DNA of 64,000 nt, taken from positions 15,810,001-15,874,000 of the forward strand of contig NC_135826.1 of assembly GCF_964213995.1 (NCBI RefSeq), in the 5' to 3' direction. Below the pieces are notes generated by a model. The model ran no database searches, was not told where the DNA came from, and worked only from the letters and a program-made list of their open reading frames with translations. This document shows, in pieces, positions 3,699 through 55,551 of the stretch; within the stretch, counting starts at the first letter, position 1, and every line of letters begins with the position of its first letter. The position numbers were made by a program, and so were the translations under genes. Source of the DNA: Mustelus asterias (Eukaryota).

Positions 3699-20134
<16,436 letters not shown>

Positions 20135-23770: not shown

Positions 23771-23988
23771 CAGCATTGGCCACATCCTGAAAATAAATTA
23801 AAAATAGCACAGAGCAGGTGAAGCCCATTGGCCTGGTGATTAGAAACAGGCTAAATCACTTTCCCAGAATATTGAAACTTAGAAATTTATACCCTGTTCC
23901 ATCTGGATAGACACACAGAATGTGAACTGAACCCATCCCATTCCACCCAATTAATCAATGAACACTGGAAGGAACGAGACAAACTCAC

Positions 23989-24012
23989 CTTGTGTTCATC
24001 TGAGCAGCTCCA
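23989..24012 (-). other. Probable short non-coding exon 1 of the cathepsin gene (TSS approximate)
   Basis: Consensus donor AAG|GTGAGT at 23989/23988, about 50 nt downstream of a TATA box. Vertebrate cathepsin L/K/S genes have a non-coding exon 1. Confidence 0.65.
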
Positions 24013-24036
24013 CTGAACGGCGGATAGACTCCCACA

Positions 24037-24098
24037 TTATATAGACACACAGTCTTCCAGGAGCCATCCCTTCAGATCTATGGCGACATAATTGATTG
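24037..24098 (-). promoter_or_regulatory. Cathepsin core promoter: TATA box and CCAAT box
   Basis: Minus-strand TATATAA at 24037-24043 and CCAAT at about 24095-24099, with canonical spacing. Confidence 0.65.
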
Positions 24099-24346
24099 GG
24101 AAATAGAAGACAATATTGCTTAAGAATGGAACTTCTCTTTTAAAAGGGAATACAGTCATAATATTTTGAAATGTAATATTTGCATGGCCTCCTTTCAGTT
24201 TATTTAATTTTTGGTTTCCTTTTTTATCTCGACCACTATGTGTCTGTAAATCTGCTTTCAGACTTCATTAAGATTGGTCCAGTCGTTTTAAAACCTCTGA
24301 TACCAAATAACATGTCTATTGAGCTTGCTGTGTTCCAAATACATTA

Positions 24347-25794
24347 TGTGGAGATGCCGACGTTGGACTGGGGTGGGCACAGTAAGAAGCCTCACAACAC
24401 CAGGATAAAGTCCAACAGGTTTATTTGGAATCACGAGCTTTCGAAGCGCTGCTCCTTCCTCGAATCAATTCCAGCCTCCCGGACTGCCTGGATCCACTAC
24501 AGTTTGCCTACCACCGCAACAGGTCCACAGTAGACGCCATCTCCCTGGGCCTGCACTCAACCCTGGAACATCTAGATAACAGAGACACCTATGTCAGACT
24601 CCTATTTATTGACTACAGCTCAGCCTTCAACACCATTATTCCTACGAAACTCACCTCTAAACTCCCTGGCCTGGGCCTCGGCTCCTCCCTCTGCAACTAG
24701 ATCCTGAACTGCCTAACTCACAGACTGCAATCAGTAAGCATAGGCAACAACACCCCCTCCATGATCATCCTCAATACGAGTGCCCCACAAGGCTGTGTTC
24801 TCAGCCCCCTACAATACTCCTTATGCACCTATGACTGTGTGGCAAAATTCCCCTCCAACTCGATTTTCAAGTTTGCTGACGACACCACTGAGATAGAGTA
24901 CAGGAATGAGATAGAGAATCTGGTGAACTGGTGCAGCGACAATAATCTCTCCCTCAATGTCAACAAAATGGAGATTGTCATCGACTTCAGGAAGCATCTA
25001 GGAGAGCATGCCCGTCTACATCAACGGAGACGAAGTAGAAAGGGTTGAGAGCTTCAGGTTTTTAGGTGTCCAGATCACTAACAACCTGTTCTGGTCACCC
25101 CCTTGCCAACACTATCGTTAAGAAAGCCCACCAACGCCTCTACTTTCTCAGAAGACTAAGGAAATTTGGCATGTCAGCTACGACTCTCACCAACTTTTAC
25201 ATATGCACCATGGAAAGCATTCTTTCTGGTTGTATCACAGCTCGGTATGGCTCCTGCTCTGCCCAAGACCACAAGAAACTACAAAAGGTCGTGAACGTAG
25301 CCCAATCCATCACGCAAACCAGCTTCCCATCCATTGACTCTGTTTACACTTCCTGCTGCCTCGGCAAAGCAGCCAGCATAATTAAGGACCCCACGCACCC
25401 CGGACATTCTCTCTTCCACCTACCTCCGTTGGGAAAAAGATACAAAAGTCTGAGGTCACTTACCAACCGACTCAAGAACTCCTTCTTCCTTGCTGCCATC
25501 AGACATTTAAATGGACCGACCTTGCATTAAGTTGACCTTTCTCTACACCCTCACTATGACTGTAACACTACATTCTGCACTCTCTTATTTCCTTCTGTGA
25601 ACGATATGCTTTGAGTGTATAGCACACAAGAAACAATACTTTTCACTGTATGTTAATACATGTGACAATAATAAATCAAATTAAATCCTCAGGTGAGACT
25701 CACCTCAGGAAGGAGCCGTGCTCCGAAAGCTCGTGTTTCCAAATAAACCTGTTTTACTTTAACCTGGTGTTGTGAGACTTCTTACTGTGCCCAC
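24347..25794. mobile_element. Penelope pLTR-derived fold-back element (two 96-bp inverted arms, each with a hammerhead motif), split by a Rex LINE
   Basis: Arms are 24373-24461 plus 25691-25697 versus 25699-25794, with a 1-nt centre at 25698. Flanking ACATTA duplication. Homologous to the Penelope end at 55440-55552. Confidence 0.85.
24462..25685 (+). mobile_element. Rex1/Babar LINE, 5'-truncated
   Basis: [48 protein letters not shown]; tail AATAATAAATCAAATTAAA; TSD TCCTC. Confidence 0.9.
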
Positions 25795-26807
25795 ATTAAA
25801 CGGTATGATCGGCCTGATAAAATATAAGTGAACTGACCCTGTGTTCCAGCTCTGACCAGCTCACTACACCACAGGTATGCAGTGTCCAGCTTTACAGGAA
25901 CATTGGCCTAAAGTGTAATTGTGACATTGGATTCTCACTCTTTGTTGGTGTTTTTTTGATGAATTTTAAATTATCAGTAGAAACATTGTCAGCACTAGGA
26001 AGGAAAGGTTTTGTGGACAGTTTTCACCCAAGTACCAGAATCGAACAGGTTAATTATGGGCCAAATGACAAGATATCTTCCTTTCTGAACCCCAGAAAAA
26101 CACCGCCACTGAAAAGATCAGAACAGGATGAGTCTATTCAGCCCCTCCCCCCTCAACTGCCCCACCAAACTTCGCTACCCAAACTGACTGACTGCATTTG
26201 ACATCATCTACCTTCGGCGATGTTCATTTACACTTATCTGTCCTCAGTTGTGTTCAGGACAACAATTTAGCTGTCATTTGTCATCAGTTGCACTCAGAAG
26301 CAGTCATGTAACTATCATTATTGTTAATACCATAACTGACATCAATGTCATCAGTTGCCTCAAACTAGTGTTCAAATATTTACCATTGACAATATCACTG
26401 AAGCATTTGGAAGCCAAAAATCACATCTATTTTCCATTTTTCTGAATTTCCATATCTTCAAACATTCTATAACTGAGCTAACTTTAGCAAAACCAGACTC
26501 TGTTTAAACAAATGTTTAAATCAGCTACTTTTATGTTTTTCTTCATAACCTATGATTCATGCATCAAATTTCTGACTCCTGCTCCCCCAGATTGCAACAG
26601 ACTCACTCCCACCCCAATCCTTGGAGCAATTTCCTCCTGTTACCCCAACACTAACCCTCAAATTGCAGCATCTCTTCACCTCCCTCACATCTTCCCCACT
26701 TCTTCCCCCTTCCTCTCACCTTCTCTCCCTCCTCTCATCCCCCTTCCCACTCTCTGCCTCCCATTCACCCGCCACCTGCAAATCACTCCCCATCTCCTCC
26801 TCGCCGC

Positions 26808-26921
26808 TCGCCCCGCCCCCGGGGGTTCAGGTGAGGACGGTTAGAACCGGTTTGGACCGGCTGGAACTAGCTGAAGGTGAGCTCGGCGCGGGAGCAGCAA
26901 TGGTGCCGCCAGGAGGTGAGT
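26808..26921 (+). other. Candidate CpG-rich first exon of an unidentified divergent gene (ATG 26900, MVPPG, phase-1 donor)
   Basis: GC box CCCCGCCCC at about 26811, local CpG enrichment, GCAATGG Kozak context, GAG|GTGAGT donor at 26915/26916. Downstream exons not identified. Confidence 0.4.
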
Positions 26922-27650
26922 GCAGTGCGGCCTGAGGGGGAAGAGTTTGCAGATTGAGGGAGAGAGAGAGAGATTGGAGGGAGGGAGGGTTATAGTTTGG
27001 ACACCTCCTGTCCCGCCCGTCAATCAAAGGACAGCAGCTGTCCATTGCAGGCAGCGACAGCAGGTGGTGTTGGGCAGCTGTTGCCCTGCCCCCATGGAGA
27101 GGCCAAGGACACTGAGGCGCCCAGGCCACAGTGAGGTGGATTGGGATTGAGGGGCTAAAGGGAGAGGTGATCTCTCAACAAGATCACCCCTTCCTTCCCA
27201 AAGCAAGGCTCCTCCAACAGGCAATGAGAGCCTTTGAACCAGAGGATTAGTGTGAGCAGCTGTGAGTAACACACATCAGGAAGGATATATTGGCCTTGGA
27301 GAGAATGCAGCTGAGATTTACCACAATGATATCTGAATTCCAAGGGTTAAATTACAAGGAGAGATTACACAGTGTAGAGTTGCATTCCCGAGAGTTAGAG
27401 GGTTAAGGGATGTTTTATCTGAGTTTTGAAGATCAAAAAACGGATAAATACTGTTACCACCTGTTGGGGAGTTTAGGATGATGAGAAATAGTTTAAAACG
27501 TAGAGCCAAATATTTCAGGAGTGAAATCAGGAAACAATTCTACGCACAAAGGGTGGTAGAAGTTTGTAACTCTCCCACAAACAGTAACTGAAACTTAAAA
27601 AAAAGATCTTAAATATTTTAAGTGGTTGCAGGTTGCTTTAAAAGCTAGTC

Positions 27651-40372: not shown

Positions 40373-40443
40373 ATTCCCCTACTCGCTACATTGGTCACAG
40401 CAATATTAGGCCAAATTTATTTAACCTCTATTATTTCTTTTCA

Positions 40444-41790
40444 TCAATGTATTATTGCATCTATATTGATTCTTGATGATGCCCATAAAGTATTAATAGT
40501 GTATTCGTTGTCATAAATTGGAGCATCTACAGAAGTTGAAGTCATTGGTATTTCTTCCTTCTGTTCCTTGATTGATGCTATTCTTGCCACAGTCTGGCTT
40601 GTTAAACAACACCTGAGTAGCATTATAGTCGCAATAATCAGCAGTAAATAAACAAAAAGATATATAGTTCCAATTAATATGTTTTTTCCCAAATTTCCGA
40701 TCCATTCCGTTGTCCATTTTTCCAGAGAGAATGGCTCTGGTTTTTCTGACTTCTTGACCTCCTTCCGAATATGAGTTACCAGATTGGTGATATTCTCCAA
40801 AAGATCTGGTATGTAGGTGCAGCATTTCGATCCAATCAAAGTTTCTCCTCTTGCTGCAAGAATGAAATCCAACGTCATCCGATTCTGTAACACTGTACAC
40901 ATTGCTACCATCTCATCATTGATTTGTGATAAAGCAATGCTTGTGTCATTCGCTACCTTTTTCTAAGATATGGGCAATATTTTCCAATTCCATTGTCAGT
41001 CTTATATGTGAATATCCTGGCACCATTATTCCAAAGAAATAGTCTATGCCCACTGCAGTACGTCGATGTCTGGTAGTTTCCATTGGTAATTGATCAGTGT
41101 GATAAATATATGGAACTACATATCCTAAGTAACAAACTCCTCTCCAACCTTTGGGCAGCCAGGGTAAGCTTTGTTTCTCCAAATCCAATAAGTTCTATTA
41201 AACGTTGGGTAAATATGTTCTCCTCTGAAACAATATCGAATGTTGCACAAGCGATCATCTCCTAGTGGGCTTAAGCAAATCCTACTCTTGACATTTATGG
41301 TGTAGTTGCATTTACTAATCCCAATATCTATGCTTCCCTGGTCATTCTTGATGCATAATATTCCTTGTTTCTCTAAGCCTGTATCAATCAGAATCAAATT
41401 GGGTGCTTGTTTGAATACAGCTGAGTATCTATTCAAGTAACCTGACTTTTCTGTGCATGATCTGTCATTGAAAAAGTCTGCTCTTTCACACTCCTTTATA
41501 TATCCCACTGCTCTTCCTCTGGGTTTTCTGAACAATTGGGTTAATTGATCCCATATTATCAATTCTTTCCACCTTAAAGGGATTGGCTGTAAAGGAATTC
41601 CCTCCCCCGAATGAATTGGTCTACGAGTACATACCCAACATTTAGATACATCAGCTGTTTTAGCATAAGTGTTTGCCAAATACAGATAAGTGTTTCTGTT
41701 AAACTCCTGATAATCCACTTGCACTATACAAATCATACAAGTTATTACAAGATGTAATGTATTCATTTTTACCATTTTGTTATCACTCAA
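40444..41790 (-). pseudogene. env: ERV env (gamma-type SU-TM), frameshifted
   Basis: Signal peptide, CWVC isomerase motif, WLPKGWRGVCYLG, furin site RHRR, ISD LQNRMTLDFILAARG, CC, transmembrane helix. Confidence 0.9.
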
Positions 41791-42030
41791 GTTCTGTGTA
41801 TGTTAATAACAATAATGTACTTATTTTGACTGTGCCTTTTTTTAAAGATAGTTTTAATTTGTTATTCATTGATGTTTTCTTTCTTCGACGGATTGTTGAT
41901 TTTTTTTCATACGTACAATTCTGTAATTTTACACATAATATGGCCCTAAGGCCTCACAATTAGAATCAATAATCATAAATACAACATTTGATTATAAGCA
42001 TTTTCTAGATTGCTTTACTATACCGTCTGA

Positions 42031-44872
42031 TTAGACTAAAAATCTGAAACATTTTAGACAAATGAATTTATCCAGATTTGTTTTGCTAATTTGATCCTTT
42101 GGGTAAGGTTTTAGCTGTGTCCAGTGTCTCCATGTTGAACCATGTTTTGCATCAATTAAAGCACATGTTTCTCCTGCAATGATTATTTCAAATGGCCCCT
42201 CCCATCTAGTGCTTAATCCTTTTTTGTCAGACATTAATTGTACCATAACCTTATCTCCTGCAGTTGGTAAATTTGGATTTTCTTTTTCAGCTAATTTCAT
42301 CCAATCCTTATCTTGTTGTTGAATGACTACTTGTTTTTTCAGGAATGTAATTGGGTTATTAAGTGTCTCATGCATTGATAAACTGCTCCTTTTCCATTCG
42401 GTAACTCCTGTCCTCCTGTGATAACATCTTCTGGGAGATTCATTGCTCTTCTTGTCTTCAATTCAAATAGGGTTAATTCCATTCCTTGAGATGGAGTGGC
42501 TCTTTGTCTTAATAGAATTGCAGGCGAAGCCTGCATCCAATTATTCCCTTCTTCTAACATGGCTTTAGCCAAACTGTTTTTCAATGTCCTGTTCATTCAT
42601 TCTACCATCCCTGACTCTGTGGATGAAAAGGTAAGTGAAATTTCTGTTTAACCCCTAACATTCTACATACTTCTCTCAGAACTCTCCCGGTGAAGTGAGT
42701 TCCCTGATCTGAGTCCAATTGTAATGGCATTCCCAATCGGCGTATGATTTCATTGGCGAATATCAAAGCCACAGTCTTGGCTGTTGCATCTTTACATGGA
42801 AATGCTTCTACCCATCGTGTGAATTGGTCAATAATCACTAAGCAATAACTTTTCCCTTTCTTCCTTGGTAAAGGCCCTGTAAAGTCCATTTGTAAATTTT
42901 CCCATGGTCCCTTGGGTCTGGGTTGGTTTCCCATTTTTATTTTGCAATGTCATCCGGGTTCTACTTGAGCACACTGAATGCATTTTTGGCAGAACTTGGC
43001 GATCATTTCTCCCATTCCCTTCCAGCATCAGCAATTCTTAATTAAAGTGGTCATTTTATCTCTGCTGGTGTGTGCTACTCCATGATATAAAATCATCAGT
43101 GTTTGGTGTATTGCTTCTGGAACTATTATTTTCCTATCTTTCCTCCATATTCCATCCCACTCTTTCTTTGCTCCCAGTTCTTTCCATCTGTTTTTCTCTC
43201 CCTCTGTGACTTGTTCTTGAATCTGTTTGATGTCTAATTCAGTATCATCTTTAGTTTGTATAGCAGCTATATCAGCTAATTGGGTTTCTTCTAACTTTTG
43301 TTCTAATAATCTTTCAGCTGCTAAATCTGCTTTGTAATTCCCTTCTTGGTCCTTTCTAGTGATTCGTTTATGTGCACAAATTTTGATCACAGCTGCTTCC
43401 TTGGGTGTGTGTACTGCTTAAATCAAATCTTTGATCAAATTTTCACATTTAATGAGTCCTTCACTGGAAGGAACAAACCCTCGTCTTTTCCATGCAGTTA
43501 TGTAGTCATGTACTACCCCAAATGCATATCTGCTGTCTGTGTATACATTTATTCTTTTTCCTGTTCCGCATGTTAAAGCTCTAGTCAGAGCGATCAATTC
43601 TGCTACTGGTGCTGACTCTCCTCCTGGAATTTGTTTTCCTGCAACTATTGTTGCTTCCTCACTTACTACTGCCCGTGCAGAATGTGGTGCACCATCTATG
43701 TATTTCCTGGATCCATCCACATACAGATTAATCACATCACTCCCTGACAATGGTTCTTCTGACATGCCTTCACAAACTTCTTCATTGGCTTCAGATACAC
43801 ATTCATGTTCAGTCCCCAGCACTATGGGCTTGATTTTACCATCAAGTTGCGCCTGTTTTCGGGCGCGAAACTTATTCAAGTCGGGCATGAGGCGAGTAGT
43901 GTGATCCGCGCTTGCCTCCATGCCGGTTCCCCCTTTACCAAGGCCTGAACGTGGCCGCAAGCGGGACCGTGCCCGAAGTGTGCGCAACGGATACTTTAAT
44001 GCATTTGGATCATCGAAACTCACGCGAAACAGACATGGTCCACAAAAGTCCAATTAGGGCACTGCAGTTAGTGAGGAGGTCAGTGCTGAGCGTCCGATGG
44101 CTCTCTGCTTGAGATCGTGGGGGTAGGGGTGGGGGAGGTGAGTCTGACGGCTCTCTGCTTGAGATCGGTGGGGGGGAAAGGGGGTTCGCTGCGACTGCCT
44201 GAGATCAGTGGGTTGGAAGGGGGGCTCCGCTGCAACTGTGCCTGAGATCAGTGGGGGGGGGGAAGGGGGATCTGCTGCCACTCTGCCTGAAATCGGTGGC
44301 GGGGGGCAGGGGGGTCCACTGCCACTCTGCCTGAGATCGGTGGCGGGGAAGGGGAGAGGGGCCTGTGATCAGTCTGGGTGGTGGAGGGGGTGGTGGGATA
44401 AGGGGGTCAGTAATGTTGTGGGGGTGGGGCAATGTCTCTGGGAGCCAGGGGGAGGCATTATCCAGCCTGGGAAGGATGTGGCAGGGGAGCCGCATTCTAT
44501 CATTTTTATTCTGGGCATCAGCAGTTGGCGGCGCCGATTCGAGCTGCAGGGATTCGGGCGCGTTAAGCCTTGTCCACCGGCTTGTGCAGTACGATTCGGA
44601 ATCGCTGATATTTTTGTGGGTAGAGTGTGTATGGGGGGGGGTGTCTGAGAACGGGCCCAAAACTTGGATCTGAAACACCCCCAGTTTCAAGTCCAGCACT
44701 TGTATTCAAAATGGTCAAAAGGGCCCTATGTGTCCCCCAACTGGACCATCTCTCACCTCCTTACTGATTTCCACATGCTTATCCCATTTTGATCTTCTTC
44801 CACCTGAGACTCCTTTTAGTCTTCCTGCTTCTAACAACTGCTGCGTGGACTATGAAGGATTCTTTTTCCCAT
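42031..44872 (-). pseudogene. pol: ERV pol remnant: RT connection, RNase H and integrase (protease and RT core absent)
   Basis: LYVDGS, AELIAL, VYTDSRYAFG (RNase H). LQMDFTGP, IDQFTRWVEAFP, DSDQGTHFTG, HPQS (integrase). RWEGPF (GPY/F). Confidence 0.9.
43826..44726. mobile_element. Non-autonomous Harbinger-type TIR element (same family as 7862-8958)
   Basis: TIRs GGGCTTGATTTTACCAT / ATGGTCAAAAGGGCCC; TSD TAT; the pol frame is restored when it is removed. Confidence 0.85.
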
Positions 44873-44874
44873 AA

Positions 44875-45041
44875 GTGTGGAAGAGAGAATGTCTGGGGTG
44901 CATGGGGTCCTTAATCATGCTGGCTGCTTTGCCGAGGCAGCGGGAAGTGTAGACTGAGTGAATGGATGGGAGGCTGATTTGCGTGATGGATTGGGCTACA
45001 TTCACGACCTTTTGTAGTCCCTTGCGGTCTTGGGCAGAGCA
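44875..45041 (-). mobile_element. Internal Rex1/Babar fragment truncated at both ends
   Basis: CSAQDRKGLQKVVNVAQSITQ...HSLFH; no 3' tail. Confidence 0.85.
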
Positions 45042-45049
45042 ATTCAAAA

Positions 45050-46322
45050 TGCTGGACTCAAACTCAATCCTAACAAGGCAATGTGTCCTTTTTGCATGCA
45101 TAACAGTTCTTATAACCTTGTGTGTAATCTGTTTTCCTGATGCATGTATGGGTGTTTTCTCTGACTCCTGTTCTTCTGGCTCTTTGTAAATCCTCAGCTC
45201 TCACTGCCCAATTAATTATTTCTCCATATGTTTCCCCCATCGGTATCCCCATTTTAATGATATGAGTCAATTCTGGGCTGAATCTATTTATTAACAATTG
45301 TCAGAAGATGTCATCATCACGGCTCGGGTAATCAATTCCGCTGTTATCTACATAAGCTTTGAATTTTCTTTCAGCATATTCCTCTGCTGTCTCGTCTGCT
45401 TTTTGTTTAATTGCTGTTACCCTAATCCGATTTGCAGCCCCATCTCCTAATGTTTTTCTTAACGCAGTTTTGTAAGCAAAGTATTTTATGTCATCATCTG
45501 TCCCCCCAGTAATTATCCAATCTCTGTTCTTTAATGCATCATTGGCTAACATTTCCCATCCTGGTCCTGATAACTTTAATAAGTGCTCTTACATCATCTA
45601 AAGTTAAATAATGCAGATTTCTAGCTTCATCCGCATGCTCCCAAAAGGCTGAATTTTTGTGGTTTCTTTTCAAGGGTCCCAATGCTTCTGTAATCATTTG
45701 TTTATCAGAGGGAGACAAGGGAACTTCCTCAGTTACAAAAGTAGATCTTACCCTTCCTCCACGAGAATGATGTACCTTTGTCCTAATGGGAGCCATGAAT
45801 TTAGTTTTAATGGAAGATGGTGTTAATATCTTTTTTTTCATAAAATTTTTTCTTTAGTTCATTCCCCCTGTCACCACTGGATGGAGCTTTGTTCTTACAA
45901 ATTTTCATATTCTCAAATCAACTGTTAATCTTAGAACTGTCTGATCCTGAGGTCTCACCTGATTCTGATGATGAACTTGTTTCATCAGAACTGATTTCAG
46001 CCTCAGAATTGTAAACTTCCTTTTTAATTTTATGTTTAATTTTTCCCTGCTTGTTGTTTTCCTGATCTGTATTTTTAAGATGCCGTTCTTTTTCCCTAAC
46101 CTCTTTTACTAATTGATTCCTTGTTGTAGCGGCCAAAATGATTCCAGCCATCTCCGATTTTTGTTCAGTTTGCTGATTCCACCAATCTTTTTGAATCTCG
46201 TCTAATGCATCGGGGTTATGGCCCTTGCTAATCATTTTCTTGATTAATTTACTATTTTCATTGGCAAAGGTTTGAATTACGGAACCAGCAATTCCCCAAA
46301 CTGGATTATCTCCTTCTGCCAT
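45050..46322 (-). pseudogene. gag: ERV gag, frameshifted
   Basis: MHR-like IKQKADETAEEYAERK, INRFSPEL and a degenerate CYACKK.GH zinc knuckle; lies upstream of pol. Confidence 0.75.
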
Positions 46323-47606
46323 TTTATATGTGAAAATTGCTTTATTTTTTTCTTTACTTTTTCTGTTAAAAACTTTTTTTTTAAAAAGAAATGACTTCCT
46401 TTTAGCTGTAACCTTTTTACGGCTTCTCCAATATTAAACTACCATTTAACTCTTGTATTCCCTTTTTTTAAGTTGTATCTTCCGTATTTTACAACATCTC
46501 CGTCGTTAGACTACTGTTTAAATCTGCTGTATTTTTACTCGGTCTGTTTAACCAATAAGTGCGCAGAACTCTGGCACTGTTGTTTCAGCGAAACTAACTC
46601 CCCTTACCTTAGTTTCCTGTTTTACGCGCACTTCACTACTTCTGTGTAATCAGCACACCTTTCAGGGACCTGCTGCATGTGGGTAGAGTGTCTTTTCTTT
46701 CCCCCCACTTTTGCGTTGATAAACCAGTAAAAAAATTACCTCGCGCTACAACATTGGCAATGAGACTAAATCATCCGACAGTCGCTAAATTGTCAACATC
46801 TGGGGGCGGAAGGGTGAGTCTCCAAAAAACTTGCAAGGAAGGTAAAATGTCATTGTACCAATCATAGCCGAGTCGCCATGCCATTGTTCCGGAAAATTAA
46901 TCTTTTTGATCCAGAGGTTGAAAATTGTTGCCAGTACATCAAAAAACTTCAATACATTTTCGCAGCCAATGAAATAACGTCCAAAGAAAAGCAGAAAGTT
47001 ATTTTACTCATGGTTTGCAGCCCATAAGCATATGACCTCGTAAGAAGCCTGACTTCTCCGGAGATATCGGGTATGAAACCCTTTGACCAGTTAGTCGCAC
47101 TAGTGAGGGACCATTACAATCCCCAACCCTCCATTATTATGCAGAGATATAAATTTGATTCGGCTATTAGGGACTGAGGGGAAACAGTTTCTGCTTCTGT
47201 TGCCAGGCTTTGCCAAATGTCCTTACACTGAGAGTTTGGCCTGTCTCTAAATGATATGTTAGCTGACCGTCTTGTCTGTGGTATTAACAGTTTGAACATT
47301 CAGAAGAAGTTGCTGGAAGAAACTGAAATTTGCCGAGATAAGGCGATTGAATTGGCTGAAGTGACTGAAAGCTCTAAACACGACACTTCTGAACTGCAAA
47401 GCGTGCAGGATGAGGTGAATAAAATTTGGCGGGAAATGGTGACCGCTGAAATCCCAGTAGCGAGGACCCAGCGAAGCCTGAGAAAAGGAAGAGAAATCAT
47501 CAGCCACACGGTTTGGTGAGTGTTATTGTTGTGGAGGAGGTCACCTCCAAGACAGATGTGAATGTAAAGAACTCATTTGTTTCAGATGCAATAGAAAGGG
47601 CCACAT

Positions 47607-50820: not shown

Positions 50821-51408
50821 CACCTCGGACCACAAGCTGTGCAATGATAAACTGATTCTGTCAATCTAATTGACCAGTGTACAAAGATGAGCCTTTTGGC
50901 TGCTTAGAGCTACACCTTTCAACACAGGCCAGAGGAACATTTCTCCAATGCCAATGCTCTAAGTTGGCTTCCACTTCAACAGACGATATCGTCACCGCTC
51001 GTTGCACAGGAGATAGTCCTTGGTTTGAATTTTCTGGACATTCTACCCATTTCGTCAACCCTCATCAAGATATGGACGCAGAGGAACCTCGTTCCATCAA
51101 AGGTTAAAAGAATAGTTTTAATCAGCTGGCATTTTGACAAATTTGAACAGGTCTGGCCCTGCAGTGAAGGGATGAAATTAGCTATGAAGACAGGGTGGTT
51201 TCTGGGAGAGCCAAGTGATAGTACCAGCCCCAGGGTGACAGCCACTCCCCCAGGAGCTGCACAGAGAACGTCTTGGGCAAACCGAGATGAAGATGTTGGC
51301 CAGAAGCTACATTTGGCCTGGAATTGACAAGCAAATAGAGAGTGTGGTCAGCCGTTGTGAGCATTGCCAAACACAGCAAAACCTTCTGCCCACAGCAAAC
51401 TTACACCA

Positions 51409-51735
51409 CTGGGAGAGGCCCGGCTGCCCTGGGGGTGAGTGGCCCGGCTGCCCTGGGGGTGAGTGGCCCGGCTGCCCTGGGGGTGAGTGGCCCGGCTGCC
51501 CTGGGGGTGAGTGGCCCGGCTGCCCTGGGAGTGAGTGGCCCGGCTGCCCTGGGAGTGAGTGGCCCGGCTGCCCTGGGAGTGAGTGGCCCGGCTGCCCTGG
51601 GAGTGAGTGGCCCGGCTGCCCTGGGAGTGAGTGGCCCGGCTGCCCTGGGAGTGAGTGGCCCGGCTGCCCTGGGAGTGAGTGGCCCGGCTGCCCTGGGAGT
51701 GAGTGGCCCGGCTGCCCTGGGAGAGGCCCGGCTGC
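51409..51735. repeat. 24-bp minisatellite GTGAGTGGCCCGGCTGCCCTGGG(G/A), about 13 copies
   Basis: Near-perfect tandem array inside the Gypsy integrase linker. Confidence 0.96.
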
Positions 51736-54700
51736 ATTTTGACGAGGCTCCACATTGATTTTGCCAGCCCTTTCATTGGAATGATGTTTTTAATGTTAGT
51801 GGATGCCCACTAAATTGACATTCAGATCATGCATTCAGCAACCTCATCATCCACAAGCAGTGACAAATTTTCACAATATGTAGCATTCCAGAGGTGATCG
51901 TTTCTGACAATGGCACCGTTTTCGCAACCAAAGTGTTTCAACAGTTTGTTGAGATTAATGGTACCCAAGAGATACAGATGACCCCATCCCACCCCGCCTC
52001 CAATGGGTTGGCAGAAAGGGCAGTGCAAGCTTTTAAAGCATCGATAGGGAAGCAGTCCAACAGACCACTGCCATCTGGTTAGCCAATTTTCTGCTGTCAC
52101 ATAATGTGACCCCTCACGCTGCCACAGTGGTACATCGGTCAAATTGTTGATAGGACGATACCTTAGAATCTGCCTTGACATCTTTTTCCCAAATTTCTGG
52201 GAAGGGTGGGGGCTAAGCAAAAACCTGACAGAAGGCATACCACGATTCAGCTAGGTTTACTCTGTCGGGTTGGGGGGGTCTCGAACAATGGATCACAATC
52301 TCCATTTAGGACTGAGATGAGGGGAAACCTGTTCACTCAGAGGGAGGTGAACTTGTGGAATTCTCTTCCTGTGGAGGCCAAGTCACTGAATATATTTCAG
52401 AAGTAAACAGTTGGATTTCTAGACCCTAAGTTGTCAAGTGGTCTGGGGAGAAAGCGGGAATATGGCATTGGGATACAGGAATAACCATGATCATAGTTTC
52501 TATGTTACTGTGTAATAGAGCAGATGTAACAATAGATGCTGATTACTTTGCAGATAACTTGCAGATAATTTTGAGCCACACATTTCAGGTAAAGAGGCAA
52601 AGCAGTAACTGGCTTTATTAGAGCAACCCTGCCAGGGCAAAGAAGGAGATCTTGTGGTGCAATGATTGGTGTCCCGCTATCCCACTGGGAGGGTTTATCT
52701 TGCCATCTGAGCTCAGGTCTTCCTGCAGGCCCTCCAAGCCAACCCAACAGGTAGACTCCATGAGGCCCACAATGACAGGCATCCTGGAATAACTGCTTCT
52801 TCTGACTGAACCCTCGACCTTGCCCCTTCTCCCCCCCTTCCCCCGCCTTGAATCAGTGGGATAAACCATAGAGTCCCTCACCCTCACTCAGACATGAGCC
52901 CAGGAGTCAGTGTGTGGTCAGCTCAAAGGCAGGAGTCAGACACGAGCAGAAACTGAGGAGCGTCACAGCTTTCTCAAAGCGAGTTGTGATCGTCTTCCTG
53001 CCTTGTCAAGTGACTCACGCACACTGCCAGCCCAGGCCCATCACCCTGGTGAGATGTCAATGACCTCTTCAGGATTGAGGTGGGTCGAGGGGTGGGGTGT
53101 CGAGGGAAAGGATTGGGGGGTGTTTGAATGTGTAGGGGGCAGGGTTGAGATGGTGTTGTGGCTATTGAGGTGGGGCTTGGGTGGGGCTGATGGCTATGGT
53201 GCCGCTAGACACCAAACCCTAATGAGCAAATCTTGAGGTTATGTGGACCTTCCTGGCCTGTCACACACTGGGTGCTGCTGACTGTTCTCCATCCTCCAGC
53301 TCCTCCTTGCCCACATTGCCCACTCCCTCCTGGTTTCCCCCACACAGGAAGAAGACCATTCCTCCTCCAGAATGTCACCCCACTGCAGCACAAGGTTGTG
53401 GGGTGGACATCAAACTACTAAACCACAAGTGTTTCTTTGGCTGCTGCTCTGCAGACACCGCTAGAGTGGTCAAGGCAGTGGAATCGCATCCCCAGCAGCC
53501 TTATGAACTGTTCAGTCAATGTCCCGGGTAGCTCTGTGAGCCTCATATCGCAGGATTCCGCTTCAGACTCAGGCCTCCGCACTGGCATCATCAGCCATGG
53601 CCTCTGCTGTGGTAGCCCTTGTCCCCCCCACGAGCTACCCCAGCAGCCTGGGTAGGTCTTCAAAGACCCCGGGGGTCTGCGAGTGCCCCACTATGTAGCT
53701 ATCATGCATGCTTCCTGGGTGCGTTCACGTACACGCATGACGTTGAGTGCACGGTCATAAGAGTCATAGACATTTACAGCATGGAAACAGGCCCTTTGGC
53801 CCAACTTGTCCATGCCGCCCTTTTTTTTAAACCCCTAAACTAATCCCAATTACCCGCATTTGGCCCATATCCCTCTATACCCATCTTATCCATGTAACTA
53901 TCTAAATGTTTTTAAAAGATAAAATTGTACCCACCTCTACCAACTACCTCTGGCAGCTTGTTCCAGCCATTCACCACCCTCTGTGAAAAAATTGCCCCTC
54001 TGAACACTTATGTATCTCTCCCCTCTCACCTTAGACCTATGCCCTCTAGTTTCAGACTCCCCTACCTTTGGGAAAAGATAATGACTATCTACCTTATCTA
54101 TGCCCCTCATTATTTTATAGACCCCTCTAAGGTCACCCCTCATCCCCCTACACTCCAGAGAAAAAAGTCCCAGTCTATCCAGCCTCTCCTTATAACTCAA
54201 ACCATCAAGTCCCAGTCGCATCCTAGTAAATCTTTTCTGCAGTCTTTCGAGTTTAATAATATCCTTTCTATAATAGGGTGACCAGAACTGCACACAGTAT
54301 TCCAAGTGTGGCCTTACCAATGTCTTGTGCAACTTCAACAAGATGTCCCAACTCCTGTATTCAATGTTCTGACCGATAACACCAAGCATGCCGAATGCCT
54401 TCTTCACCACTCTGTCCACCTGTGACTTCACTTTCAAGGAGCTATGAACATGTACCTCTGGACCTCTTTGTTCTGTAACTCTCCCCAATGCCCTACAATT
54501 AACTGAGTAAGTCCTGCCCTGGTTCAGTCTACCAAAATGCATCACCTTGCATTTGTCAAAATTAAACTCCATCTGCCATTCATCAGCCCACTAACCCAAT
54601 TGATCAAGTTCCCGTTGCAATTGGAGATAACTTTCTTCACTGTCCACTATGCCACCAATCTTGGTGTCATCTGCAAACTTACTAACCATGCCTCCTATAT

Positions 54701-54827
54701 TCTCATCCAAATCATTAATATAAATGACAAATAACAGTGGACCCAGTACTGATCCCTGAGGCACACTGCTGGTCACAAGCCTCCAGTTTGAAAAACAACC
54801 CTCTGCAACCATCCTCTGGCTTCTGTG

Positions 54828-55551
54828 CCGGATCATCGACACGGATGCCATCATCTCACGTGAGAACACCATCTACCAGGTACACGGTACCTACTCTTGC
54901 AACTCGGCCAATGTTGTCTACCTGATACGCTGCAGGAAAGGATGTCCCGAGGCATGGTACATTGGGGAAACCATGCAGACGCTACGACAACGGGTGAATG
55001 AACACCGCTCGACAATCACCAGGCAAGACTGTTCTCTTCCTGTGGGGGAGCACTTCAGCAGTCACGGGCATTCAGCCTTGGATCTTCAGGTAAGCGTTCT
55101 CCAAGGCGGCCTTCATGACAGCGCAGAGTCGCTGAGCAGAAACTGATAGCCAAGTTCTGCACACATGAGGACGGCCTAATCCAGGATGTTGGATTTATGT
55201 CACATTATCAGTAACCCCCACAGCTTGCCTCCTGGATTTGCAGAATCTCACTAGCTGTTCTGTCTGGAGACAATACACATCTCTTTAACCTGTGTTTAAT
55301 GCTCCCTCCACCCACATTGTCTGTACCTTTAAGACCTGGCTGGCTGTAGGGATTCGCATTCTAATCAGTATTCTGTAACTTGATTTTGTGTCTCTGTGCA
55401 CTGTTTGAGAGCACATTTCCACTCCATCTGACGAAAGAGCAGCGCTCCGAAAGCTTATTGTATTTGCTACCAAATAAACCTGTTGGACTTTAACCTGGTG
55501 TTGTGAGACTTCTTACTGTGTTCACCCTAGTCCAACGCCGGCATCTCCACA
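54828..55551 (+). mobile_element. Penelope-like element 3' part (GIY-YIG endonuclease and pLTR)
   Basis: NVVYLIRCRKGCPEAWYIGETMQTLRQRVNEHR; flanked by TTCTGT duplication. Confidence 0.88.
55424..55460 (+). ncRNA. Minimal type I hammerhead ribozyme motif in Penelope pLTR
   Basis: CCAT-CTGACGA-A-AGAGC-AGC-GCTCC-GAAA-GCTT-ATTG; one mismatch each in stems I and II. Confidence 0.65.

Follow-up and report, generated by a model that had tools for sequence, protein, structure and literature searches.

A LINE-split fold-back upstream of a cathepsin gene in Mustelus asterias is probably an old head-to-head insertion of two short Penelope pLTR copies

An inverted repeat interrupted by a LINE is located upstream of a cathepsin gene in the 64,000-nucleotide stretch of Mustelus asterias DNA analyzed here (contig NC_135826.1; herein referred to as the window), and the locus raises the question of how this structure arose and whether it does anything. 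In the first-pass annotation, it was described as either an extreme truncated and inverted Penelope insertion or a non-autonomous ribozyme-bearing hairpin retroelement, possibly serving the neighboring promoters as a two-way cleavage/polyadenylation cassette. The reading preferred here, to which a probability of about 0.88 is assigned, is that two short pLTR copies of a Neptune-type Penelope element entered in a single old insertion, placed head to head presumably by twin priming, and that the structure was later split by the LINE and is likely functionless now.

After the LINE was excised by script, the fold-back measured 217 bp, close to the 220 bp estimated previously, with 122 nt to the left and 94 nt to the right of a central A at position 25698. 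Two 96-bp arms around one nucleotide had been described. The paired arms and the single-base centre were confirmed: 94-96 bp are paired within the LINE-free fold-back, mismatches are found at 9 of 94 positions, and the centre reads GTGAG-A-CTCAC. The equal arm lengths, in contrast, were not, because the left arm exceeds the right one by a one-sided Penelope tail of 26-28 bp that had been missed. Complementarity between the inverted arms 24373-24460 and 25707-25794 is 91%. A chance origin of the 19-nt centre is ruled out by its 133 exact copies genome-wide, as compared with none for the reversed control.

From left to right, the insertion starts after the left copy of the target site duplication (TSD), ACATTA (24341..24346, plus strand), with the single-copy tail (24347..24372, minus strand). 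In autonomous copies this tail extends to the ATG of the ORF; here it corresponds to the end of the 5'UTR and stops just before that ATG. The tail is followed by the tail-bearing left pLTR arm (24373..24461, minus strand), the LINE, the rest of the left arm (25686..25697, minus strand), and the central A, which is the modal arm 5' end in the Penelope family and a putative transcription start. The right pLTR arm (25699..25792, plus strand) has no tail, contains a hammerhead at 25700-25736, and is followed by the right copy of ACATTA (25793..25798, plus strand), the first bases of which also match the element (microhomology). The AATAAA signal reported for each strand is indeed present on both, at 25742-25747 on the plus strand and at 24425-24420 on the minus strand.

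The LINE (24462..25685, plus strand; 1.2 kb) is 5'-truncated and broken. It is bracketed by two copies of its target duplication TCCTC, at 24457-24461 (plus strand) and 25686-25690, and matches the RVT_1 and ALKBH8_N profiles, corresponding to a reverse transcriptase (RT) and a C-terminal ALKBH8_N/DUF1891-type domain. Its identity to a copy at locus L223 is 89%. It is provisionally labeled a Rex1/Babar element.

The state of the site before the insertion can be seen in paralogs of the same region. The cathepsin upstream region forms a tandem cluster with at least five copies on the contig, at approximately 15.83-16.06 Mb, and the insert is found only in the copy of the window. All five paralogous upstream regions without the insert, four on the same contig and one on another, hold the target once. 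The empty target fixes the boundaries of the element and demonstrates a single insertion in one paralog, with the ACATTA flanks as a true target duplication. The duplication would be 7 bp long if position 24340, which differs from the C of the paralogs, were counted; the TSD was probably 7 bp originally (CACATTA). Locus L217, on another contig, and locus L218 align identically to the window; they are possibly the same locus, represented twice in the assembly. Read contigs from sequencing runs were dominated by repeat copies; two of them extend 20-22 letters into the tail, short of the 31 required for bridging, too little to claim the insertion for a related organism.

The arms belong to a very large repeat family. 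Across the 3.7-Gb genome, 154,065 exact matches were found for an arm 35-mer that includes AATAAA. The tail runs on into the beginning of the ORF of an element with an RT, a C-x4-C-x2-C linker, and a GIY-YIG domain. At locus L223, this element has the layout pLTR-ORF-pLTR and matches RVT_1 (E 3.2e-9) and, slightly below the curated cut-off, GIY-YIG (E 1.9e-4). The C-x4-C-x2-C motif precedes GIY-YIG in loci L225 and L227-L230; in the available part of PMC8557442, a CX2-5CxxC motif within the linker that joins RT to endonuclease (EN) is given for the Neptune/Nematis clade. The arm is the pLTR of an endonuclease-bearing Penelope element, labeled Neptune-type here by the linker motif and the vertebrate host. 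All the features by which insertions of EN+ Penelope-like elements (PLEs) are recognized, namely the element layout, an inverted 5'-truncated copy, a one-sided tail, and a TSD, were found. The first of the two earlier proposals, a truncated and inverted Penelope insertion with minimal hammerheads, is borne out. Head-to-head pairs are the usual product of the family.

The frequency of such pairs was estimated in a centre-blind sample of 206 arms, taken from the surroundings of 86 matches to the 35-mer, the first of 100 listed (the first 2.5 Mb of contig 1), and from arms away from the centre of 40 stretches, each 10 kb long; the sample represents one chromosome end and is biased to young copies. 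In total, 142 of the 206 arms were found in 71 head-to-head pairs. Exactly one tail was present in 65 pairs, none in 3, and two in 3. The side of the tail varies, being left in 46 and right in 56 over all 109 pairs. Arm 5' ends, that is, the turn points of the palindromes, range from -805 (the edge of the reference) to +48 relative to C3 of the hammerhead, and the palindromes found include examples measuring 220 bp, 2.0 kb, and 3.8 kb. The largest of these (L227:2958-6742) is 97.8% self-complementary and consists of two halves bearing RT and EN; it has a single tail, and its target is duplicated over approximately 12 bp.

The outer ends of the pairs cluster at -1..+3 and at -40..-30 relative to the ATG, approximately 35 nt apart; the tail-less end in the window, at -31 to -28, lies at the edge of this distribution. 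The TSD length has its mode at 12-13 bp (93 pairs), and the TSD of the window is shorter (6-7 bp). Microhomology between target and element averages 1.41 and 1.15 bases at the two end clusters (71 pairs with TSD of at least 9), as compared with a shuffle null of 0.4, which is understated since choosing the longest TSD adds about as much, a fair null being estimated at approximately 0.8. Additionally, short composites were found at loci L157, L160, L162, L163, L171, L172, and L178, in which the second piece runs from the tail through 30-100 nt of the ORF start and back to the pLTR. These may point to additional RT starts within the ORF and to template jumps.

The second proposal, a discrete non-autonomous hairpin retroelement that carries ribozymes and is copied as a unit, would account for the 133 exact copies of the centre and for the 9 of 58 closely joined pairs in which both ends lie at -12..0. 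However, these 133 copies are only a small part of the 2,467 joins in the genome whose spacer is 0-8 nt long, and in a hand count of the first 50 of these joins the centre of the window occurred 6 times, as compared with 18 for the commonest centre, which is 2 nt shorter. Copies sharing the centre of the window are themselves heterogeneous: the 26 that were compared carry at least five subfamily signatures, with the tail on the left in 8, on the right in 15, and unclear in 3, and the two arms of each copy match one another. Nor do they share a common set of arm differences. Among the 14 comparable copies (11 of the 26 were excluded for gaps or more than 16 differences, and the fifteenth is the window itself), 11 have none of the nine differences of the window and 3 share a CpG site, one of these together with one further site.

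Copies with the same centre and ends had been suggested as support for a discrete family; in the centre-blind sample the turn points span more than 800 bp, and the sizes form a continuum up to 3.8 kb. Differing inversion points had been named in advance as the mark of ordinary Penelope truncation, and such varied turn points, together with several subfamilies at one centre, are what was found. Moreover, the pairing of the two arms in a transcript, predicted at about -150 kcal/mol before the LINE insertion, would mask the hammerheads. A hairpin copied as a unit is considered very improbable, and the comparisons indicate that the fold-back is rebuilt at every insertion.

How it is rebuilt may be read from the commonest turn point. 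The arm 5' ends peak at -12..-1 (38 arms, the bins on either side holding 10 and 13; p 3e-6), and the class of the window is the mode. Among CAC-type arms that extend far enough, 40 of 49 have a TATA box 27-34 nt above the centre A; among CAT-type arms, none of 27 do. The peak is weaker in the TATA-less CAT subfamily (6/53 as compared with 22/93), the difference not being significant (p 0.08). The A at the peak, 29-32 bp beneath a TATA box at the commonest turn point, is likely the start of a capped RNA. In non-native contexts, this A is preceded by G in 69 of the first 100 of 1,776 matches, as compared with 16 of the first 100 of 491 matches at a control site (hand counts in both cases). The preceding G mostly occurs in TG (54/69), and where the base before it is A, G is found in 15 of 27. 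This extra G could come from the cap or from templated extension on the partner cDNA.

The two arms of a pair also resemble each other. Arm divergence is 0.037 within pairs, as compared with 0.086 when arms from different pairs of one class are set side by side (permutation test on 28 pairs, p 1e-4; both cores were scorable in 37 close pairs), and the 5' ends lie within 15 nt of each other in 37 of 58 pairs, where 11.7 are expected (p 1e-4). Such sharing of donor variants and of lengths is consistent with priming on both strands of the target, and the similarity of the arms could be inflated by later gene conversion.

In the mechanism favored here, the RT-endonuclease of the element would make a staggered cut at the target, and each DNA end would prime reverse transcription on element RNA of one donor. 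One start, at the ATG site, would produce the tail, and the other, approximately 35 nt upstream, would leave none. In the window, both cDNAs would have reached only the 5' end of the capped mRNA, approximately 30 bp below the TATA box of the pLTR, and joining of the cDNA 3' ends would have produced the mirror image. The more specific claim that the shortest fold-backs are full run-off copies of the capped mRNA 5' leader, made by a dimeric RT twin-primed at two RNA sites on one donor, with a base added at the cap showing as G and the cDNA ends joined, is held at about even odds.

A partial precedent is the Poseidon element PAc of Anolis carolinensis (Frangieh et al., 2024; PMC11167929), for which the available text describes in vitro cleavage and extension of both strands by the PLE protein, with initiation at two internal RNA sites between which the tail lies; inverted copies are not discussed in that text. 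It also describes an ATT-containing target, and the target in the window likewise holds ATT. In contrast to the family studied here, with starts at the ATG and approximately 35 nt before it and a Neptune/Nematis linker, the same text places the starts of this Poseidon-type element 111-118 nt inside the ORF.

The identity of the element would be unchanged if the palindrome had instead formed by self-priming, that is, by fold-back of antisense element RNA or of the first cDNA, the tail being added by later endonuclease resolution. In the available sections of the respective papers, self-priming is proposed for head-to-head junction palindromes (Arkhipova et al., 2013; PMC3846280) and the tail is ascribed to EN-mediated resolution (PMC8557442). 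Shared donor variants and matched 5' ends follow directly from such a process, and self-priming on antisense RNA accounts for the matched arms as well as twin priming does. However, snap-back of the first cDNA predicts that the tail-bearing arm is never the shorter one, and in the 14 pairs unequal by more than 20 nt this arm was longer in 7 and shorter in 7. It also predicts that the centre base follows the side of the tail, against which stand the 8 left, 15 right, and 3 unclear cases among the 26 copies described above. Furthermore, one-base loops are not foldable, and a peak at a sense-strand initiator (Inr) below a TATA box suits a sense template. Self-priming is regarded as unlikely, though a serious competitor to twin priming.

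The hammerheads of the fold-back are in a different state from that first described, which was a CTGAGGA hammerhead on each strand. The plus-strand core reads CTCAGGA (25704-25710), the conserved G5 being replaced by C at 25706. On the minus strand, the CTGAGGA core (25692-25686) is intact and lies, together with the 5' strand of stem I and the right TCCTC, in the 25686..25697 segment. It is parted by the LINE from the 3' part of the same hammerhead in the left arm, which comprises stem II (24455-24443), GAAA (24442-24439), and a predicted cut after 24435. An intact core followed by the start of stem II was searched for in both hammerhead copies and found in neither; thus, this copy has no intact contiguous catalytic core, and both of its present hammerhead versions are predicted to be inactive. 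A scan of the element against Rfam, a library that need not contain minimal hammerheads, gave no match at E<=1. Folding of single hammerhead halves gave z-scores of -0.38, -0.13, and -1.80, none of them significant, as expected of minimal motifs.

At the level of the family, the motif is better preserved. Among 179 arms, collected with a search pattern that itself demanded a near-core, CUGANGA was found in 168, with C, U, A, or G at N7. Positions U16.1-N17 are UU, UA, or UC in 172 arms, GC is present at 15.2-16.2 in 167, and the first stem I pair is C-G in 107 and U-A in 51. With a conserved core that varies mainly at N7 and with covarying stems, the motif of the family is a sound minimal type-I hammerhead. 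In a small sample of short arms (from loci L046-L155), the starts of 8 of 29 fall no more than 1 nt from the predicted cut of the hammerhead, which is a weak hint that arm starts may be traces of in vivo cleavage. In a transcript of the fold-back, the arms would pair with each other, with 76-79 pairs predicted today, and the hammerheads would thereby be hidden.

The neighboring gene was identified as a cathepsin by a Peptidase_C1 match in a downstream exon (E 6.9e-33). A TATA-like box (24043-24037) and a candidate non-coding first exon (23989..24043, minus strand), with a donor at 23988, lie in a region conserved in the five paralogs. Exon 2 (20144-20003) carries the ATG and begins 10 nt ahead of it. 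Based on the TATA-like box, the donor site, and the start of exon 2, we infer a cathepsin promoter at approximately 24.04 kb. The region proposed as a divergent promoter at 26.9 kb is single-copy save for a GA-rich stretch and only weakly similar in the paralogs. The interval 26760-27060 is GC-rich and single-copy, with several GTGAG donor-like sites and no gene linked to it.

A host-adopted two-way cleavage/polyadenylation or double-stranded RNA cassette between these two promoters would fit the position of the fold-back, which is separated by approximately 300 bp from the candidate cathepsin TATA box downstream of it, as well as the AATAAA on each strand and the predicted pairing of the ends around the LINE. 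However, both proposed promoters have the element upstream of them, and it is absent from five of five paralogs. Its arms have drifted at 9 of 94 positions, including the catalytic G5, and the LINE is located inside the other core, so that both hammerheads are broken. The hammerheads are on opposite strands, and no dimer is possible within one transcript. AATAAA, for its part, is present in nearly every arm of the Penelope family. The cassette is the least probable of the readings considered; a dead insertion without a control role is the likeliest one. If it were transcribed, double-stranded RNA could possibly be formed.

In their general form, such insertions have precedents. Inverted pLTRs with a junction palindrome, a one-sided tail, and a TSD have been published for Adineta and Drosophila elements, and the available parts of these papers describe several traits shared with the present copy (Adineta vaga Pen2a/Pen2, PMC3846280; Drosophila virilis Penelope, PMC2377424; see also PMC8557442). 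The shared traits are the inverted 5'-truncated head-to-head pLTR with its junction palindrome, a tail of 30-40 bp on one end into the ORF start with a short TSD, and a TATA box with an Inr-like motif in the pLTR. Unlike the insertions described there, the copy in the window has no ORF between the inverted copies and is split by a LINE, and its family is very abundant, with head-to-head pairs as the majority product.

The hammerheads are likewise comparable to the minimal ones described in PLEs from metazoans (Cervera and de la Pena, 2014; PMC4209133). In common with the motifs given in the available text are the CUGANGA and GAAA boxes, an extra base between positions 9 and 10.1, the G10.1-C11.1 pair, the palindromic 15.2-16.2, and a short stem I. 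Stem II is 5 bp here as compared with 7-8 bp there, and in the present copy one core is mutated and the other interrupted. For Schistosoma, the same source reports pairs of hammerhead motifs on opposite strands, 100-700 bp apart. Non-LTR retrozymes (bioRxiv 10.64898/2026.07.22.740005) are also short, non-coding, hammerhead-bearing, and related to pLTRs. As defined in the accessible part of that preprint, they consist of direct tandem units with complete hammerheads; the fold-back is an inverted pair in which the arm is not directly repeated and neither hammerhead is intact, and this assignment was rejected.

A literature search that covered few subscription journals and not Repbase found no paper on such fold-backs from cartilaginous fish and none on Penelope twin priming. 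The origin of inverted pLTRs in PLEs is described as an unsettled matter in the available parts of PMC8557442 and PMC3846280. The thousands of junctions in this genome allow twin priming and self-priming to be tested against each other by statistics on tails, donors, lengths, and the TATA-associated peak. If the run-off interpretation were true, the junctions would record both the transcription start and twin-primed insertion, and the question of inverted pLTRs with a one-sided tail would be settled. The paralogous empty sites make the copy in the window an unusually clean, boundary-verified example. The locus itself is of little weight. It is an ordinary, dead head-to-head Penelope stump with a nested LINE, one of thousands of such stumps, beside one member of a set of duplicated cathepsin genes.

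Other repeats were also found in the window. The Penelope family of the fold-back is represented once more, by a longer 5'-truncated copy from another subfamily at 54824..55550 (plus strand), which retains a GIY-YIG remnant, the 3'UTR, a hammerhead, and the tail. On the minus strand, at approximately 40400-46400, broken open stretches resemble, by eye, the gag, RNase H/integrase, and envelope of an endogenous retrovirus. Long simple tandem arrays at 11200-12700 and 51340-51790 give rise to spurious open frames.
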